Assembly: GCF_944387245.1 (NCBI RefSeq)
Contig: NZ_CALXEE010000026.1
Location: 1-25,517, forward strand
Source of the DNA: an uncultured Intestinimonas sp.
GTDB lineage: Bacteria; Bacillota; Clostridia; Oscillospirales; Oscillospiraceae
Length of the DNA stretch: 25,517 nucleotides
Direction: 5' to 3'
Positions 3,225 through 20,604 of this stretch are shown piece after piece. The position numbers and the translations under genes are program-made. A model generated the notes under the pieces. It saw nothing but the letters and a program-made list of their open reading frames with translations. It was not told the DNA's origin and searched no databases. Position 1 is the stretch's first letter; every line of letters begins with the position of its first letter.

Positions 3225-3265
3225 GGGGGGAATCTGTGGCCGCAGGCGACTGAGAGAGAAACGGT

Positions 3266-3601
3266 CTCCGGCGGGCCCCTTTCTGGATGACCAGAAAGGG
3301 GCGAAAGAGTCAGTCAAAGAGGGGGATTTCGATTTCCCCCCTTCCCGACACCCAACCCCCTTGAAACGACCAAACACAGGCAAAAGGGGACCCAAATGGA
3401 GCCCAGCGAAGCGGGTCCATTTGGGGGAGGAGGGGCAAGGGAGCCGAGCGAGACCTGGCCGTCAGGCCAGGGTGAGCGGTGCGGACTTTGTCCCGACGAC
3501 GGCCCCCCTATTGGAAGTACCCCCCGGGGCTCTTCTACTGTTACGCCACTTGCACCGTCGGCTTACTCCGTAACGCCGCCGGTGCCCGGGCGTAGGGGCG
3601 G
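3266..3601 (+). repeat. Family-A repeat, copy 1 (~336 bp, hairpin-rich)
   Basis: Aligns by eye at roughly 90% identity with 5508-5853 in the same orientation. Contains hairpins cccctttctgg-atga-ccagaaagggg, cccaaatgga..tccatttggg and ctggcc-gtca-ggccag. Starts 42 nt after the gpr stop. Confidence 0.85.
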
Positions 3602-3630: not shown

Positions 3631-3673
3631 GCGTGGTACCGTGGCGCGTCTGGCAAACCGTGCCCCACAAATG
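3631..3673 (-). repeat. Family-C hairpin, inverted copy
   Basis: The reverse complement reads catttgtggggcacggtttgccagacgcgccacggtacc. This matches the motif TGTGGGGCGCG-GCTTCCCAGA-CGCGCC seen at 5875, 9121, 13893 and 16501. Confidence 0.7.
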
Positions 3674-3766
3674 AAACTTTCCCGTATCGGTGCGGCGGGC
3701 GATCAAAGGCCGCCCCTACACAGGCAAAACAGTGTCCAAAACCGTGCTTTCTTTCCGTCCCAGCCC

Positions 3767-3795: not shown

Positions 3796-3814
3796 GGCTC
3801 CACATTGGAAAAGG

Positions 3815-4041
3815 CAGTGACCGGGAGAAGTACGCGAGGACCCGGACCGCAGAGAGGAGCCGCTTGGGTGCAAGGCTCCCGACGGTCCCGCGGAAGGCGC
3901 CCGTGAGCCGCGGAGCGGAAATGCTCCGCCGTCTCGTCCCCGTTACGGACTTCGAGTGTGCGCCCCACGGGGCGTAAATTCAGGTGGTACCACGGACCGT
4001 CAGCGTTCGCCCTGAGCCATAAGCTCAGGGCGTTTTCTTTT
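3815..4041 (+). promoter_or_regulatory. T-box riboswitch leader, glycine (GGC) specifier, with intrinsic terminator
   Basis: AGAGAG plus a distal GGTGCAA loop (3851-3875). Specifier loop GAA-GGC-G..GTGAGC, with GGC at 3896-3898. Stem III cgcccc-ac-ggggcg. T-box motif AAATTCAGGTGGTACCACGG (3976-3995). Terminator cgccctgagc/gctcagggcg (4008-4032) followed by a T-run to 4041. Confidence 0.9.
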
Positions 4042-4077
4042 GCTTACCTTTATTTTTGTCATAAGGAGTGTCTCCCC

Positions 4078-5499
4078 ATGAAAAACACCGAAAAGACCAT
4101 GGAACAGATCGTAGCCCTGTGCAAGGGCCGTGGCTTCATCTTCGCCGGCAGCGAGATCTACGGCGGCCTGGCCAACACCTGGGACTACGGCCCCCTGGGT
4201 GTGGAGCTCAAGAACAACGTGAAAAAAGCCTGGTGGAAGAAGTTCGTCCAGGAGAACCCCTACAACGTGGGTCTGGACGCCGCCATCCTCATGAACCCCC
4301 AGGTGTGGGTGGCCTCCGGCCACGTGGGCGGCTTCTCCGACCCCCTCATGGACTGCAAGGAGTGCAAGGAGCGCTTCCGCGCCGACAAGGTCATTGAGGA
4401 CTGGTGCGCCGAGACCGGCTTCACCCTGCCCAAGCCGGTGGACGCCCTGTCCCAGGATGAGATGAAGGCCTTCGTGGAGGAGCACAACATCCCCTGCCCC
4501 TCCTGCGGCAAGCACAACTGGACCGACATCCGCCAGTTCAACCTGATGTTCAAGACCTTCCAGGGCGTCACCGAGGACGCCAAGAACACCGTCTACCTGC
4601 GCCCCGAGACCGCCCAGGGTATCTTTGTCAACTTCCAGAACGTCCAGCGCACCACCCGCAGAAAGCTGCCCTTCGGCGTGTGCCAGGTGGGCAAGAGCTT
4701 CCGCAACGAGATCACCCCCGGCAACTTCACCTTCCGCACCCGTGAGTTCGAGCAAATGGAGCTGGAGTTCTTCTGCCAGCCCGGCACCGAGCTGGATTGG
4801 TTCAAGTACTGGAAGGAGTTCTGCCACAAGTGGCTGCTGGACCTGGGCATGAAGGACGAGAACCTGCGGCTCCGGGACCACGATCCCGAGGAGCTCTCCC
4901 ACTACTCCAACGCCACCACCGACTTTGAGTTCGTCTTCCCCTTCGGCTGGGGCGAGCTGTGGGGCGTGGCCAGCCGCACCAACTTCGACCTGAACGCCCA
5001 CCAGACCACCTCCGGCAAGGACATGACCTACTTCGACCAGGAGAAGAACGAGCACTATATCCCCTACGTCATCGAGCCCTCCCTGGGCGCCGACCGCGTG
5101 ACCCTAGCCTTCCTGGTGGACGCCTACGACGAGGAGGTGGTGGACGCCGAGAAGAACGACGTCCGCACCGTCCTGCGGCTCCACCCCGCCCTGGCCCCCT
5201 TCAAGTGCGCCGTGCTGCCCCTCTCCAAGAAGCTGGGCGACAAGGCCCGGGAGATCCAGGCCGAGCTCTCCAAGTACTTCATGGTGGACTACGACGACGC
5301 CGGCTCCATCGGCAAGCGCTACCGCCGCGAGGACGAGATCGGCACCCCCTACTGCATCACCGTGGACTTCCAGACCGTGGGCGACGACAAGACCCCCGCT
5401 GACAACTGCGTCACCGTCCGCGACCGCGACACCATGGACCAGGTGCGGATTCCCATCGATCAGCTCAAGGACTATATCGCTGAAAGAATGGCGTTTTAA
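4078..5499 (+). CDS. glyQS: Glycine--tRNA ligase (class II, homodimeric GlyQS type)
   Basis: The ORF track starts at 3958 inside the T-box. The real start is ATG 4078 ([22 protein letters not shown]..) after AAGGAG. Class II motifs are present ([29 protein letters not shown]). Confidence 0.96.
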
Positions 5500-5507
5500 G
5501 TAAATGC

Positions 5508-5853
5508 CTCCGGCGGGCCCCTTTCTGAATGACCAGAAAGGGGCGAAAGAGTCAGTCAAGGAGGGGGATTTCGATTTCCCCCTCCTTGACAATCCTCCCC
5601 TTAAAACGACCAAGCACAGGGAAAAGGGGACCCAAATGGAACCCGGCGAAGCGGGTCCATTTGGGAGAGGAGGGGCAAGGGAGCTCAGCGAGACCTGGCC
5701 GTCAGGCCGGGGTGAGCGGTGCGGACTTTGCCCCGACGATGGCCCCCCTATTGGAAGTACCCCCCGGGGCTCTTCTATCGTTACGCTGTCTGCACCGTCG
5801 GCTTACTTTGTAACGCCGCCGGCGCTCAGGCGTAGAGGCGGCCTACGGCCGCC
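5508..5853 (+). repeat. Family-A repeat, copy 2
   Basis: Direct repeat of 3266-3601. Starts 8 nt after the glyQS stop and ends in the hairpin ggcggcc-tac-ggccgcc. Confidence 0.85.
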
Positions 5854-5874
5854 CGTCGCGCCGCTATGGGACCC

Positions 5875-5916
5875 CATTGGCGCGGGGCGCGGCTTCCCAG
5901 ACGCGCCCGGTACCGC
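5875..5916 (+). repeat. Family-C hairpin
   Basis: cattggcgcggggcgcggcttcccagacgcgcccggtaccgc. Stem gggcgcg/cgcgccc with the conserved loop gcttcccaga. Confidence 0.7.
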
Positions 5917-7918: not shown

Positions 7919-7944
7919 ACCTTCCCCCCTGGTGGGGGAAGGTT
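7919..7944. repeat. Solo P-type palindrome
   Basis: accttccccc-ctggt-gggggaaggt, then tttt. There is no adjacent H hairpin or GGATGAGGG motif. Confidence 0.7.
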
Positions 7945-9089: not shown

Positions 9090-9120
9090 GTCGGATTTTA
9101 TGGACGATAGGGGGCAGCCT

Positions 9121-9152
9121 CGATTGTGGGGCGCGGCTTCCCAGATGCGCCA
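9121..9152 (+). repeat. Family-C hairpin
   Basis: cgattgtggggcgcggcttcccagatgcgcc. Confidence 0.7.
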
Positions 9153-9420
9153 AACCCCGCCCCGAACCATTACCATTCTGTTATGTGTAAGGACGGGGGA
9201 GACGGCTTAAAACCCGTTTTGCTTTCCTGCTGGAAAAAGAACGGTTTTTGGAATCCAAAGAAAAAGGGGCTCCCGTGCGGGTTAAGCGGCTCTAAATAGG
9301 AATCCGGCGGCCCGTCTTTACGCCCCCATAGAGCACCAGCCCCGTCTACGGTAGACTACCTGGGCGGAACAGAGACAAGTTGTGGTTCTATCCAACATTT
9401 TTTCGCCGCCTGCGTGGGTG
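9153..9420 (+). repeat. Family-B repeat, copy 1
   Basis: Aligns by eye (roughly 85-90%) with 13616-13853 and 20003-20272. Shared core: ggacggg.gagacgg..aaaacccgtttt gcttccctgctggaaaaagaacggttttt..atccaaagaaaaagggg..ccaaataggaatccg..tttacgccccc..ttttt.gccgcctgcgtgg. Confidence 0.85.
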
Positions 9421-9461
9421 AAAGTTGCGGCGTAAGTTAGCGGGTGGCCTGCAAAGACGGC

Positions 9462-9527: not shown

Positions 9528-9965
9528 TTACTTGAACTTCTTACTCTCCATCACCGCCAGCTCATCACAGCGGTTGTTGTAGGGATTCTCCGCATGCCCT
9601 TTGACCCAGTGGAGGTTGACGGTATGGTAGTCGCACAGATTCAGGAGCTTCTCCCAAAGGTCGGGGTTGAGGGCGGGCTTCTTGTCGCCCTTCACCCAGC
9701 CCCGGGCCTTCCAGCCCCGGGCCCAGCCCTTCTCCAGGGCATCAATGACGTACTTGGAGTCGGAATAGAGCTCCACGATACAGGGCTCCTTCAGCGCCTC
9801 CAGGGCGGTGATGACCCCGGTGAGCTCCATGCGGTTGTTGGTGGTGTGCCCCTCGCCGCCGGAGAGCTCCTTTTTGAATTTGCCGTACATCAGGATGGCA
9901 CCCCAGCCCCCGGGGCCCGGGTTCCCCGAACAGGCGCCGTCGGTATAGATGGTGACTGTTTTCAT
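9528..9965 (-). CDS. rnhA: Ribonuclease HI
   Basis: 145 aa from ATG 9965: [22 protein letters not shown]...NNRMEL...YSDSKYV...[18 protein letters not shown], the classic RNase HI motifs. GGAAGGAGG lies immediately upstream. In the ORF track it is the C-terminal half of the 9528-10406 ORF. Confidence 0.9.
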
Positions 9966-10373
9966 AGGCCTCCTTCCATACCTTCCCCCCTCAGGGGGGA
10001 AGGTGTCCCCGCAGGGGACGAATGAGGGGGCGCTGCGCTCTGTCTCCTGTCGGATCACAGCGCACACTCCCTCAAATCGTTGTGCGATGTCCAAATTACT
10101 GAACCGGAGCAGCCGTAGATGATGGACCTGCTCCAAATACAGGTCCCGCCGTCGGTCCGCGGCCTGCCCCTGGTCCTCATAGTGCTGAGAGCCGTCCAGC
10201 TCAATGGCCAGTCTGGGCGAATGACAGTAAAAATCCACAATATAGGGTCCGAATACCACTTGACGGCGGAAGGGGAGAGGAAAGGTACGAAGAAACTGAT
10301 ACCACAGCTTTTGCTCCTCTTTTGTGGGGTTTTTTCGGAGCTTCCGGGCATTCTCCCGCATCCATGGGAGCAT
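9528..10373 (-). CDS. DUF559 (Vsr-like endonuclease domain) ORF with no stop of its own, reading in frame into rnhA
   Basis: From ATG 10373 ([65 protein letters not shown]) the DUF559 pattern is clear. No stop codon occurs before the rnhA ATG (linker ..[33 protein letters not shown]..). The GTG at 10406 is an alternative start. Confidence 0.7.
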
Positions 10374-10439
10374 ATCCACACCCCCCTCATCCGCCCCAGT
10401 GGGCACACTGGGGCACCTTCCCCCCTGTGGGGGGAAGGT
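9980..10439 (-). mobile_element. Candidate autonomous element: DUF559 gene bracketed by structured ~50-60-nt inverted ends
   Basis: Left end 9980-10030: ACCTTCCCCCC-tca-GGGGGGAAGGT, GTCCCC-gca-GGGGAC, GAATGAGGGGG. Right end 10381-10439: CCCCCCTCATCC, CCCCAGTG-ggca-CACTGGGG, ACCTTCCCCCC-tgtg-GGGGGGAAGGT. The two ends are inverted counterparts. Confidence 0.6.
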
Positions 10440-10463: not shown

Positions 10464-10847
10464 TTACAGCTCCTCCAGGATCTCCTTGCGCTTCTGCTCG
10501 TACTCCTCCTGGGTGATGAGGCGCTGGTCGTAGAGGGTGCGCAGCTCTGTGAGGCGGGCCTGGGTATCGCCGGGGGCGGCGGCGTCATGAGCATGCTCAG
10601 CACCGCCCTCTTCCTCAATGTGAATTTCGGGGCCAATATAGCCCTTGCCAAAGGCCTGGTAGAAGTTGGTCCCGGCGATGACGCCGGCGATGATGGTCCA
10701 AAGGACGCCAAAGATGGCGCCGAAGCCGCCGGTCATGGAAAATGAGGGGATGACCACAAAGAGGCCGATGAGCACAAAGATGATGCCCACCACGCCCCCC
10801 ACGACGGATCCGCTTTTACTGGGGCGGTAAGTCACACGTTTTCTCAT
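10464..10847 (-). CDS. SHOCT-domain membrane protein
   Basis: 127 aa from ATG 10847, with a GGAAAGGAG RBS. The track's 10889 start would overlap the upstream gene. Two predicted TM helices are followed by the C-terminal motif LTELRTLYDQRLITQEEYEQKRKEILEEL, typical of SHOCT. Confidence 0.6.
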   Translation of the reverse strand: MRKRVTYRPSKSGSVVGGVVGIIFVLIGLFVVIPSFSMTGGFGAIFGVLWTIIAGVIAGTNFYQAFGKGYIGPEIHIEEEGGAEHAHDAAAPGDTQARLTELRTLYDQRLITQEEYEQKRKEILEEL

Positions 10848-10851
10848 TCTG

Positions 10852-11066
10852 TCACTGCTCCTTTCCGTCCTCGGCGATTCCCTTTTCACGCCGGGCCTTT
10901 AGGCCCCGCAGGACATAAAACAGGGAGAGCCCGGTGGCCAGTACGAACCACACTAGGGCAAAGGCGCCGGCCAGATCCCACCGGTCGGCCACCGCCAGCA
11001 CCACAAGGGCCACGCCAAATCCGTACATCAGAATACGAAGGGGGGAGATGCACTCCTTCCGGGTGC

Positions 11067-13568: not shown

Positions 13569-13615
13569 CTATTGTTTCCTCCTTGGGTAGAGGTTCGGTT
13601 GATTTTTACGCTTGG

Positions 13616-13882
13616 GGACGGGAGAGACGCGTTCGAGCTTTCAAAAACCGTTTCGCTTCCCTGCTGGAAAAAGAACGGTTTTTGCAATCCAAAGAAAAAG
13701 GGGCTCCCGTGGGGGTTAGGTGGCTCCAAATAGGAATCCGCCGGCCCGTCTTTACGCCCCCATAGAGCACCGGCACCGTCCACAGGTGACTCCGCCGGTG
13801 GAACAGGGATACGCTGTGGTCCTATCCAACATTTTTTCGCCGCCTGCGTGGATGGGGGGCGGGACGTGGCGCCGCTGCCTGT
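13616..13882 (+). repeat. Family-B repeat, copy 2 (in the gyrB-gyrA spacer)
   Basis: Same core as 9189-9420 and 20041-20272, plus a ~28-nt extension shared with copy 3 (gacgtggcgccgctgcctg). Contains an 11-bp perfect stem caaaaaccgtt / aacggtttttg. Confidence 0.85.
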
Positions 13883-13892
13883 TTTTCCCTCC

Positions 13893-13924
13893 TATTGTGG
13901 GGTGCGGCTTCCCAGACGCACCCC
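13893..13924 (+). repeat. Family-C hairpin (stem variant with a compensated change)
   Basis: tattgtggggtgcggcttcccagacgcacccc. The stem is ggtgcg/cgcacc here and ggcgcg/cgcgcc elsewhere. The loop is identical. Confidence 0.7.
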
Positions 13925-13927
13925 TAA

Positions 13928-14126
13928 ACCTTCTCCCTCGCAGGGAGAAGGTGGCATTTGCGGAGCAAATGACGGATGAGGGTGGGTCGGTATATTTGTT
14001 CTATCCCACGCAACCCGTCCAGCATAGCTGGCCGGGCCTACGCTGAAAATGTGCTACCGCCACATTTTCTTCACGCTGCGGCCTCATCCGGCCCTGCGGG
14101 CCACCTTCCCCCCTCAGGGGGGAAGA
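13928..14126. mobile_element. D element copy 1: ORF-less MITE/REPIN-like element with the DUF559-element ends
   Basis: Left end: ACCTTCTCCC-tcgca-GGGAGAAGGT, gcatttgc-ggag-caaatg.c, GGATGAGGGTG (13974-13984). Right end: GCCTCATCCGG (14081-14091), ggccc-tgc-gggcc, ACCTTCCCCCC-tca-GGGGGGAAG. The interior has an A-run/stem/T-run hairpin aaaatgtg..cacatttt (14046-14068). Confidence 0.7.
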
Positions 14127-14139
14127 TCAAAAAGGTCCC

Positions 14140-16480: not shown

Positions 16481-16573
16481 CTGTTGTGGGGCCGTTTCAT
16501 CTGTGGGGCGCGGCTTCCCAGACGCGCCCATGGCACCACTTGATTTTGTGGGGCGCGACGACCTCGGCACGCC
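16481..16573 (+). repeat. Three tandem family-C hairpin units
   Basis: ctgttgtggggccgtttcat (truncated unit), ctgtggggcgcggcttcccagacgcgccc (canonical unit), tttgtggggcgcgacgacctcggcacgcc (variant loop). Confidence 0.65.
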
Positions 16574-16580
16574 ATATAAA

Positions 16581-16719
16581 ACCTTCCCCCTTCCAGGGGG
16601 AAGGTGGCGGCGTGAGTCGCCGGATGAGGGTGGGCTGGTACGTTGAATTTGGCTTTTGTTCTATCCGGCTCCCCCTAATCCGGCCCTTCGGGCCACCTTC
16701 CCCCCTGTGGGGGGAAGGT
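16581..16719. mobile_element. D element copy 2 (short form, 139 bp)
   Basis: Left end: ACCTTCCCCC-ttcca-GGGGGAAGGT, ggcggc-gtga-gtcgcc, GGATGAGGGTG (16622-16632). Right end: CCCTAATCCGG, ggccc-ttc-gggcc, ACCTTCCCCCC-tgtg-GGGGGGAAGGT (16695-16719). The interior matches D1 and D3 up to ttctatcc, then lacks ~70-80 nt. The right end lies 2 nt from the recF stop. Confidence 0.7.
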
Positions 16720-20002: not shown

Positions 20003-20300
20003 TTAAACCACGTACCGGCCCATTGCTTTCTGTTGCGTAAAAGGACGGGAGAGACGGCTCAAAACCCGTTTTGCTTCCCTGCTGGAAAAAGAACGGTTTT
20101 TGAAATCCAAAGAAAAAGGGGCTTCTAAGCGGGTTAGGTGGCTCCAAATAGGAATCCGGCGGCCCGGCTTTACGCCCCCGTTGAGGTCCAGCCCCGTCTA
20201 CGGTAGACTACCTGGGCGGAACAGGGGCAAGCTGTGGTCCTATCCCCACTTTTTTTGCCGCCTGCGTGGGTGGGTGTCGGGGCGTGGTGGCGCTGCCTGG
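20003..20300 (+). repeat. Family-B repeat, copy 3 (in the dnaA-dnaN spacer)
   Basis: Aligns with 9153-9420 including the ~35-nt left linker, and with 13616-13882 including the right extension. Confidence 0.85.
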
Positions 20301-20346: not shown

Positions 20347-20557
20347 ACCTTCCCCCATCCAGGGGGAAGGTGGCATTTGCGGAGCAAATGACGGATGAGG
20401 GTGCGTTAGTGTGGCGGATTTGGCTTTTTTTCTATCCAGCGAAACCCGTCCAGCATAGCTGGCCGGGCCTACGCTAAAAATGTGGCACCGGCACATTTTT
20501 TTCACGCTGCGGCCTCATCTGCCCCTTCGGGGCACCTTCTCCCCCGGGGGAGAAGGT
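20347..20557. mobile_element. D element copy 3 (long form, 211 bp)
   Basis: Left end: ACCTTCCCCC-atcca-GGGGGAAGGT, gcatttgc-ggag-caaatg.c, GGATGAGGGTG (20393-20403). Right end: GCCTCATCTG, tgcccc-ttc-ggggca, ACCTTCTCCCCC/GGGGGAGAAGGT (20534-20557). The interior is collinear with D1. Confidence 0.7.
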
Positions 20558-20580
20558 TTTTGTGGGGAGTGGGCCTTTGA

Positions 20581-20604
20581 CCTTTCCTCTTCCAGGGGGA
20601 AGGC
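20581..20604. repeat. Degenerate P-type palindrome abutting the dnaA stop
   Basis: cctttcctc-ttcca-gggggaagg (imperfect 5' arm), ending 1-2 nt from the dnaA stop codon. Confidence 0.4.

Follow-up and report, generated by a model that had tools for sequence, protein, structure and literature searches.

The 25,517 nt contig NZ_CALXEE010000026.1 of an uncultured Intestinimonas sp. (hereafter the window, meaning this whole stretch of DNA) covers the replication-origin region of a Firmicute with 62% G+C. Its minus strand carries dnaA, dnaN, recF, gyrB, gyrA, a gene for a SHOCT-domain protein, an open reading frame (ORF) of the DUF559 family and rnhA, with rnpA, yidC and jag on the other side. The subject of this analysis is the 460 bp segment 9980-10439, placed inside the gyrA-SHOCT-rnhA operon, in which the DUF559 gene lies between two inverted ends of three parts each: a P hairpin, an H mini-hairpin and an inward-facing box GRATGAGGG(G), the G box. 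This arrangement had been proposed in a preliminary description of the DNA, and all of its features are present (Table 1).

Table 1. Features of the DUF559 element, the ORF-less elements and the genes around them, in window coordinates
Feature	Position	Strand	Remarks
Gene-distal P hairpin, ACCTTCCCCCC-tca-GGGGGGAAGGT	9980-10004	+	Low-coordinate end; perfect 11 bp palindrome; folds as DNA hairpin
Gene-distal H mini-hairpin, GTCCCC-gca-GGGGAC	10005-10019	+	Loop of C-GNA-G type
Gene-distal G box, GAATGAGGGGG	10020-10030	+	Mirror of the P purine arm; putative purine third strand
DUF559 (Vsr-like PD-(D/E)XK) coding region	10032-10373	minus	ATG at 10373
Gene-proximal G box, + strand CCCCCCTCATCC, minus strand GGATGAGGGGGG	10381-10392	minus	
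Gene-proximal H hairpin, + strand GCCCCAGTG-ggca-CACTGGGGC, minus strand GCCCCAGTG-tgcc-CACTGGGGC	10393-10414	minus	
Gene-proximal P hairpin, + strand ACCTTCCCCCC-tgtg-GGGGGGAAGGT	10415-10439	minus	
Single ORF joining DUF559 to RNase HI	9528-10406	minus	292 aa; frame reads through the gene-distal end
rnhA (RNase HI)	9528-9965	minus	
SHOCT-domain membrane protein gene	10464-10889	minus	
dnaA	20606-21958	minus	
ORF-less element E1	13928-14127		Between gyrB and gyrA; left P-H-G 13928-13982, right C-H'-P 14082-14127
ORF-less element E2	16581-16719		Downstream of recF; ends 16581-16630 and 16674-16719
ORF-less element E3	20347-20557		Between dnaA and dnaN; ends 20347-20401 and 20513-20557
Solo P hairpin without H or G box	7919-7943		Directly after a terminator-like hairpin
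Degenerate solo P hairpin (family D3)	20580-20604		Beside E3

In the gene-distal P hairpin ACCTTCCCCCC is the pyrimidine arm, tca the loop and GGGGGGAAGGT the purine arm; a T run follows the gene-proximal P hairpin on the + strand. The perfect palindrome pattern occurs three times in the window and not once in 100 shuffles, and the combination GAAGGT-N10-30-GRATGAGGG is found five times with none expected from shuffled sequence. When each end is folded as single-stranded DNA with ViennaRNA, the P and H hairpins form (z = -3.7 to -5.5) and the G box is left unpaired, triplexes being outside the model of this program. The ATG at 10373 lies 7 nt past GGATGAGGGGGG on the minus strand, as was noted earlier, and the G box occupies the Shine-Dalgarno position in many homologues. 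The gene-proximal G box is likely to be the Shine-Dalgarno sequence of the DUF559 gene. The minus strand of the gene-distal G box provides the codons for 'PSF' in the tail of the protein.

The same end architecture also brackets three segments without an ORF, E1 to E3, each of which lies directly past the stop codon of a minus-strand gene (gyrB, recF and dnaA, respectively). E1 and E3 are 82% identical over their full length and 89.5% across 86 nt of alignable interior, and about six of the roughly 20 intergenic regions of the window contain a module. The H hairpins of E1 are identical to those of DUF559-bearing elements at three other loci (L002, L156 and L127). Of the suggestion that the ORF-less elements are non-autonomous derivatives of the gene-bearing one, what is supported is that inverted pairs with shared ends, identical H hairpins included, coexist with a gene-bearing unit. 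Their interiors share nothing with the DUF559 gene, which leaves the label of deletion derivatives unproven. At a further locus (L001) the 56 nt right end of a DUF559 element is perfectly repeated upstream of its own left end (4341-4396 and 3807-3862), with two extra P hairpins between the copies; this gives the appearance of a gene-bearing element placed within or next to an older array without ORFs.

The element ends are not ordinary repetitive extragenic palindromic (REP) sequences, since they combine a P hairpin, an H mini-hairpin and a G box that is a mirror image. In a scan of one genome per species for GAAGGT-N10-30-GRATGAGGG, which shows distribution and not counts, about 75 of the 120 matches listed are genuine two-hairpin modules and about one third are chance matches inside genes. 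Among the matches listed, the genuine modules are near-identical (CCTTCTCCCC-loop-GGGGAGAAGGT-hairpin-GGATGAGGGG), occur in many genomes as inverted pairs about 100 nt apart, and are hosted by Rhizobiales, Caulobacter, Xanthomonas and relatives, Legionella, Geobacteraceae, Acidobacteria, Planctomycetes, Armatimonadota and Clostridia. Over about 45 nt, the Intestinimonas module (14082-14125 and 20513-20556) shares 84-89% of its nucleotides with modules of Rhizobium, Shinella and other Proteobacteria (loci L216, L107, L052, L050, L034 and L020). Such identity across phyla is unusually strong for non-coding repeat DNA. It points to structural constraint rather than to recent descent from an insertion sequence.

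A generic search for a hairpin with a pyrimidine and a purine arm followed by a second hairpin was run over 1.2 Mb of fetched DNA. In all variants found, the box after H is the reverse, and not the complement, of the P purine arm, and at least 13 independent sequence variants obey the same mirror rule, by which G is matched by G, A by A or T, and C by T. Purine arm and G box are combined as GGGGAGAAGG with GGATGAGGGG, GGGGAAGC with TGATGAGGG, GAGGGAGC with TGAGGGAG (this pair with eight different H sequences), GAGGGGGC with TGGGGGAG, AAGGGAGG with GGAGGGAA, GGGAGAGGG with GGGTGAGGG, and GGGGGAG with GAGGGGGG. A first, loose mirror test had a high shuffle background, the code being permissive, and a stricter test confined to asymmetric arms was used instead. 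Here, 65 of 218 candidates match in the mirror sense and eight in the direct sense, a mirror rate of 29.8% compared with 6% for permuted partners. Antiparallel purine-motif triplexes follow the pairing code G·GC, A·AT, T·AT and T·CG. The mirror rule is this code, which places the ends in the class of intrastrand-triplex repeats. The geometry agrees: once past H, the strand returns along the P stem in such a way that the G box is antiparallel to the purine arm. The preliminary description had singled out GRATGAGGG as a conserved end motif; it is indeed a conserved part of the ends, and can now be identified as the putative mirror-image third strand of the P hairpin.

The connecting H hairpin is conserved in form and variable in sequence. 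There are 58 distinct H sequences in 87 modules, and a stem of at least 4 bp is kept in 75% of cases versus 6.7% of shuffles. Of 96 triloops in H, 76 are GNA, and the closing pair is C-G in 110 of 120 cases; d(C-GNA-G) is a DNA mini-hairpin motif. Some proteobacterial H hairpins (loci L017, L043, L095 and L108) read TGCCGGCA, which matches the motif YGCCGGCR. This motif is methylated by Caulobacter ScmA, a methyltransferase functionally linked to the DUF559 protein VsrA (PMC12907096), and the match may be a coincidence.

'Intrastrand triplex motifs' have been catalogued in 5246 genomes and plasmids (Holder 2015; PMC4666352). In that study the TMECO repeats, which are the BoxC or PIT elements, have the form CCCTCNCCC-N3-6-GGGNGAGGG-N3-GGGNGAGGG, and their stable triplex was shown by circular dichroism, nuclear magnetic resonance and footprinting. 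TMECO loci are unusually unstable and rearranged between strains, polymerases stall at TM and PIT elements in vitro, the surroundings of TMECOs yielded no mobility gene, and purine-motif triplexes are stated not to form in RNA (PMC4666352). The repeats were described earlier by Bergler 1992 and Hoyne 2000, BoxC first of all in the envM paper of Bergler 1992, as these works are cited in PMC4666352; according to the summary given in the same paper, earlier work found neither promoter nor terminator activity for PIT elements.

The window modules follow the three-block rule of this class, with a pyrimidine arm, a complementary purine arm and a mirror third strand laid out in the same order with a loop and a connector between them. 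They further resemble the known motifs in being intergenic, highly conserved, often arranged in inverted ('palindromic') pairs and found at strain-variable loci, and true TMECO-type modules lie beside DUF559 genes in E. coli (ycjD), Klebsiella and Shinella. They do not fit the TMECO consensus, as they read CCTTCYCCC...GGRGAAGG-[H hairpin]-GRATGAGGG: the arm is CCTTCYCCC instead of CCCTCNCCC, and the second loop is a C-GNA-G hairpin of 10-24 nt instead of 3 nt. The other difference is the nuclease gene between or beside the modules, whereas the published work found no mobility gene. The ITxF finder of the published survey allowed loops of 1-6 nt (PMC4666352), so modules with a hairpin of 10-24 nt as second loop were invisible to it and the subclass stayed uncatalogued. 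On the strength of their sequence, we assign the window ends to a new hairpin-loop subclass of the known intrastrand-triplex repeats, distinct from TMECO. By analogy with TMECO, the isolated strand of the window modules would be expected to fold into a triplex.

The protein encoded between the ends matches Pfam DUF559 (PF04480) with E = 1.7e-24 and 86 bits, against a cut-off of 20.6, and the NCBIfam model PRK09767 for DUF559 domain-containing proteins with E = 3.4e-19. The sole sequence relative of solved structure is PDB entry 3HRL (E = 1.9e-12). The AlphaFold2 model has a predicted local distance difference test score (pLDDT) of 88.2, with low confidence in the repeat-encoded tail (residues 115-136). 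With Foldseek its best match is again 3HRL (TM-score 0.82), followed by the homing endonuclease I-Bth0305I (0.75) and then by Vsr (1VSR/1CW0); RAP-like mitoribosomal proteins are also matched. Asp58 (in VDF), Glu69 and Asp71 (both in ELDG) and His75, numbered as in the 292-aa ORF, are invariant in 12 homologues. Across 48 sequences the residues E, L, D, G, Q and H are invariant, and the Asp of VDF is kept in at least 90%. The Vsr-like fold and its conserved acidic and histidine residues, anticipated earlier, are thus borne out by Pfam, 3HRL, the AlphaFold2 model, Foldseek and the homologue alignments; by analogy, the conserved D, E, D and H are probably the catalytic residues. The only family matches at this ORF, which is the one in 9980-10439 that the family search covered, are DUF559 and MTES_1575, both of the PD-(D/E)XK type, and the other ORFs listed across 9980-10439 are mechanical overlaps. 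No C5-cytosine methyltransferase is found among the sizeable ORFs of the window, and PADLOC gives only weak domain-level matches, with no membership of a known defence system.

The DUF559 frame has no stop codon of its own and runs through the low-coordinate end into rnhA. Five distinct DUF559 alleles (those of the window, the L127 cluster, L151, L156 and L002) keep the frame open into rnhA, with junctions that differ in length. This suggests either a real DUF559-RNase HI fusion or a read-through that may be selected to melt the P hairpin before the rnhA start.

A literature search found no paper that links a DUF559 protein to any repeat family, and looking up the repeat sequences in the literature brought up primers and nothing else. 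The association is visible in the proteins themselves. Among the 120 nearest DUF559 homologues, about 40 have the C-terminus '...PSS.P.G.TFPP', a translation of C box, H and P, and other homologues end in '...LSRGEGVSEADG' and a stop codon, corresponding to a P-H-G module in the direction of the gene with the stop inside GGA-TGA-GGG. The registration is precise, with the G box just upstream of the ATG and the C box within the last codons. In a metagenomic set of 80 DUF559 loci in 47 gene clusters, most loci show 'P...G' before the gene and 'C...P' after it. Where the canonical motif is missing, both ends are formed by variant modules built to the same plan, and terminal inverted repeats are significant in about 36 of 45 cluster representatives.

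Independent lineages were sampled with tblastn against plasmid and mislabelled chromosome records, together with E. coli K-12. A module lies within 200 nt of the DUF559 gene in 11 of 13 independent loci, the positives being from Sinorhizobium, N. gonorrhoeae, Azospirillum, Sphingomonas (where modules stand on both sides), Deinococcus, Shinella, Methylobacterium, Synechocystis, Photobacterium, Klebsiella and E. coli (ycjD). Positive loci span Clostridia, Alpha-, Beta- and Gammaproteobacteria, Deinococcus and a cyanobacterium. After dereplication, a module is found no more than 200 nt from the gene at 52 of 58 DUF559 loci. Modules number 4.04 per kb near DUF559 and 0.25 per kb in the remaining ~185 kb. 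With intergenic regions as delimited by a crude ORF caller, a module is present in 54 of the 89 that flank DUF559 and in four of the 96 others (odds ratio 35, p = 5e-18), and each of the two subsets taken alone shows the enrichment (Clostridial, p = 2e-14; plasmid and E. coli, p = 7e-4). The gene and its inverted ends behave as one unit, as had been supposed: they recur together in many unrelated contexts and phyla.

At two of these loci the gene is followed by several modules. In N. gonorrhoeae (L212 3001-4100) the DUF559 gene, a homologue of 3HRL, is followed by three identical modules 281 nt apart with the sequence CTCTCTCCC-tgt-GGGAGAGAG-cta-GAGAGAGGG. In Photobacterium sp. GJ3 (L221 3429-4978) about 18 alternating modules of two types stand directly downstream of DUF559.

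The E. coli member ycjD lies in K-12 between sapF and fabI, the latter also known as envM. MG1655 has 23 TMECOs, and one of them is 167 nt from ycjD. Table S2 of PMC4666352 gives fabI and ycjD as the flanks of that TMECO, without comment. Together, ycjD and its TMECO are present in 3378 of 5426 complete E. coli genomes (62%); in ST131 and O157:H7 a TetR/RND segment replaces both, and homology breaks off about 55 nt from the TMECO towards fabI. Published TMECO counts are 1-2 in B2 strains, 10-11 in O157:H7 and 19-30 in K-12-like and B1 strains (PMC4666352), and these tables give the lowest TMECO numbers for the lineages that, when checked, lacked ycjD (ST131 and O157:H7). That absence of ycjD goes with a low TMECO count is suggestive, and confounded by phylogeny. 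In the K-12 sapF-ycjD-fabI region (L210 2700-3330) the C-terminus of ycjD, 'SPSP' and the stop codon, overlaps a CCCTCTCCC arm, part of the ycjD 3' end is present a second time between gene and TMECO, and a 16 bp inverted repeat containing GAATGAGG stands just upstream of the ycjD start codon.

At the chromosomal site between the SHOCT gene and rnhA, close relatives differ in the presence and in the allele of the element. The same element is found in the same species (L126). In L206, which is 96% identical in the GyrA C-terminus and 93% in RNase H, the site is empty and the SHOCT stop codon lies 5 nt from the rnhA ATG. In L151 (RNase H 98%, GyrA 96% and SHOCT 87% identical) it is occupied by an element with a DUF559 protein that is 61% identical and with different H hairpins. 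More distant relatives (the L127 cluster, L156, L159 and L002) have further alleles, 53-65% identical, and another (L207) retains a module and a DUF559-like remnant (53% identity by tblastn) that is not called as a gene, a copy that has apparently decayed. Similarity of the flanking DNA is plain to see and is interrupted exactly in the interval from the SHOCT stop to the rnhA ATG. In many further close homologues of rnhA a small membrane peptide is encoded upstream instead, and in L002 gyrA and SHOCT are separated by a second DUF559 element, at the place of a 72-aa ORF in the window. No clean excision footprint is seen at the site: there is no precise junction, the spacers being 5 nt when empty versus 24 + 14 nt when filled.

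The preliminary description had called the element REPtron-like. A REPtron in the strict sense it is not: there is no REP-associated tyrosine transposase (RAYT) of the HUH/Y1 type, the enzyme's family matches all being PD-(D/E)XK. There are resemblances. A nuclease-type gene stands between inverted copies of a dispersed structured repeat, the same repeat occurs as ORF-less, REPIN-like inverted doublets (E1-E3), the repeats are seemingly designed for folding as single-stranded DNA, and they greatly outnumber the gene. In place of an HUH/Y1 transposase there is a Vsr-like PD-(D/E)XK hydrolase, and in place of a simple REP hairpin with a GTAG or CGTC head there is a hairpin plus triplex. RAYTs are described as single-copy and vertically inherited, whereas DUF559 is polymorphic and replaced between close relatives.

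Other known systems are similar in part. The Vsr-like homing endonuclease I-Bth0305I (PDB entry 3R3P) has the same fold and is the second-best structural match. Homing endonuclease genes likewise show presence, absence and allele polymorphism at a fixed site, and they spread by break-induced copying, which we propose for the DUF559 element; unlike them, the DUF559 gene is not in an intron or intein, and its presumed target is a dispersed structured repeat and not a unique conserved gene sequence. Vsr and Caulobacter VsrA, which carries DUF559, share the superfamily and the catalytic core. The DUF559 gene differs from theirs in having no linked methyltransferase, in lying within inverted structured repeats and in being dispensable among close relatives; linkage to a methyltransferase is not universal for Vsr-type enzymes. 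The ORF-less elements (139-211 bp) resemble bacterial miniature inverted-repeat transposable elements such as Correia, RUP and ERIC in their terminal inverted repeats, intergenic position, multiple copies and terminator-like outward ends, and differ from them in that there is no target-site duplication and no DDE transposase in the window. On our preferred reading, which is about as likely as not, the element would operate in the manner of a REPtron or of a homing endonuclease gene, but belongs to neither family. A structured repeat family with an embedded cognate nuclease is known; the pairing of DUF559 with triplex modules appears to be new.

Building on the anatomy of the ends, the mirror covariation, the fold with its conserved residues, the gene-module association and the site polymorphism, we propose that the element is a selfish nuclease-plus-triplex-repeat unit that spreads by break-induced copying, and put the probability of this reading at roughly 50%. 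In single-stranded DNA, the G box would fold onto the P duplex and supply the third strand of an antiparallel purine-motif triplex, with H as a very stable turn between the two; the published in vitro data on TMECO, the mirror code and the GNA loops all point to such folding. The DUF559 protein would recognize the folded structure and not a particular sequence, and would nick or cut at or beside the folded module. The break could then be repaired by recombination with another module-bearing locus, in the course of which whatever lies between the inverted modules, a nuclease gene or a non-coding interior, would be copied, exchanged or lost. Such copying by repair agrees with a site that can be empty, filled or occupied by another allele, and with the instability on record for TM loci. 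The many module pairs without an ORF would serve as non-autonomous partners or as targets. The G box at the gene-proximal end may double as the ribosome-binding site, and the frame may be held open into rnhA so that the downstream RNase HI is still made. More generally, and with slightly less than even odds, DUF559 proteins might be triplex- or structure-specific DNA nucleases, the missing cognate enzymes of BoxC/PIT/TMECO and of the hairpin-loop subclass, which would jointly form a triplex-defined class of selfish elements.

Several observations weigh against this proposal. The action of the nuclease on the element ends is something that we purely infer. A PD-(D/E)XK hydrolase alone is incapable of strand transfer, so that insertion at new sites is left unexplained. 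No target-site duplication is found at the element flanks, which are A or T runs without a direct repeat. The DUF559 alleles at the one locus are old, given their 53-65% amino-acid identity, and no near-identical multi-copy DUF559 genes, which would indicate recent transposition, were seen. The interiors of the ORF-less elements are unlike any DUF559 element. Modules vastly outnumber DUF559 genes: among the matches listed in the species-wide scan, DUF559 lies within 8 kb of only two of the ~75 genuine module loci, in both cases immediately adjacent to the module. Outside the Clostridial subfamily the arrangement is irregular, with modules on one side, in direct orientation or in arrays. The intergenic control depends on its crude ORF caller, and the Clostridial loci are related and not phylogenetically independent. 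For Caulobacter VsrA, a DUF559 protein, the genetic data are read by their authors as mismatch repair. Protein clade tracks module sequence type weakly (61.7% vs 55.2% identity), a signal confounded by host phylogeny; significant and small, it was not used as evidence of sequence-specific recognition.

The strongest competitor, although an unlikely one, is that DUF559 is a structure-specific nuclease of benefit to the host, which clears triplexes or hairpins that stall replication, with the module regulating the gene as ribosome-binding site or sensor and the repeats spreading by other means. The stalling of polymerases by TM and PIT elements in vitro and the instability of TM loci (PMC4666352) would suit such a role, as would the Shine-Dalgarno position of the G box in many homologues, the single module beside the gene that is common in Proteobacteria, the large excess of modules over DUF559 genes, and the higher TMECO number in E. 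coli with ycjD than in strains without it. The Clostridial elements, however, have matched inverted ends on both sides, and the gene is dispensable, polymorphic in close relatives and swapped for divergent alleles, which are features of a selfish and not of a housekeeping gene.

Distinctly less probable is a Vsr-type endonuclease for T:G mismatches, active in very-short-patch repair, with the repeats as unrelated intergenic passengers. It draws on the resemblance of the modelled fold to E. coli Vsr and on Caulobacter VsrA, a DUF559-containing protein that causes SOS induction once its partner methyltransferase has been deleted. A mismatch enzyme would leave the 35-fold enrichment of modules, the variant-matched inverted ends and the site polymorphism unexplained; no cytosine methyltransferase gene is found among the sizeable ORFs of the window, and both 3HRL and the homing endonuclease match the model ahead of Vsr.

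It is improbable that the modules act as RNA, as outward terminators, mRNA stabilizers or processing sites, with DUF559 processing the transcripts. The P hairpins with their T runs do score as terminator-like, each ORF-less element directly follows the stop codon of a minus-strand gene, and the DUF559 fold is shared with RAP-domain RNA-binding proteins, as seen in the Foldseek matches to RAP-like mitoribosomal proteins; FASTKD4 is described as a Vsr-like RNA-binding protein. C-GNA-G loops are, however, a signature of DNA mini-hairpins. The element lies within an operon whose downstream gene needs to be expressed, and no Rfam family covers the modules of the window or of the proteobacterial loci at gathering and E-value thresholds. 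A purine-motif triplex, with which the mirror code agrees, does not form in RNA according to PMC4666352, and the earlier work summarized there found no promoter or terminator activity for PIT elements.

Chance adjacency in a repeat-rich genome, which the share of window intergenic regions with a module might suggest, is strongly disfavoured by an association that holds at 52 of 58 loci and across distant phyla against both near/far and intergenic controls, by the precise registration of the G box before the ATG and of the C box in the last codons, and by E. coli, which with only 23 TMECOs has one beside ycjD.

The window contains other repeats and one RNA element. A T-box leader (Rfam RF00230, 95 bits) at 3808-4017 on the + strand, upstream of a class II aminoacyl-tRNA synthetase gene (3958-5499), is the sole Rfam match in the window, and a tRNA search of the window found none. 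The D1 family, of about 258 nt and 85-87% identity, has three copies, all in minus orientation, at 9176-9433, 13610-13867 and 20028-20285, that is downstream of rnhA and upstream of gyrA and dnaN; each adjoins a triplex element. D1 is unrelated to the triplex modules and contains a long hairpin (CAAAAACCGTTCTTTTTCCAGCAGGGAAGCAAAACGG..TTTTG). The Rfam searches of the window and proteobacterial loci gave no family over D1 either, and a weak match to MIR1437 was rejected as merely a long hairpin. The short repeat D10, GTGGGGCGCGGCTTCCCAGACGCGCC, has five intergenic copies (3643-3677, inverted; 5867-5907; 9111-9151; 13882-13922; 16488-16528), three of them immediately adjoining a D1 copy or a triplex element. 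Two copies of a duplicated segment of about 345 nt (families D14 and D2, 91-93% identical) occupy 3257-3601 and 5499-5841, one copy being downstream of the germination-protease gene and the other at the start of a sulfatase-domain ORF.

BoxC/PIT/TM repeats, described in 1992 and 2000 and recognized in 2015 as triplex-forming with unstable loci, have no known function, origin or mobilizing activity, and DUF559 is a first candidate for their partner enzyme. DUF559, for its part, is a very large 'endonuclease-like' family of unknown function with a solved structure (3HRL) and an E. coli member, YcjD. If the element is indeed a selfish nuclease-plus-triplex-repeat unit, two long-standing unknowns would explain each other. 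The nuclease-plus-triplex system would then stand beside RAYT-REP as a second way of maintaining structured single-stranded DNA repeats in bacteria. It would also be relevant to the instability of genomes, to breaks in gut-metagenome assemblies and to how spurious 'PSPxxGEG'-type peptides are annotated, and E. coli YcjD with its TMECOs would offer a tractable model.

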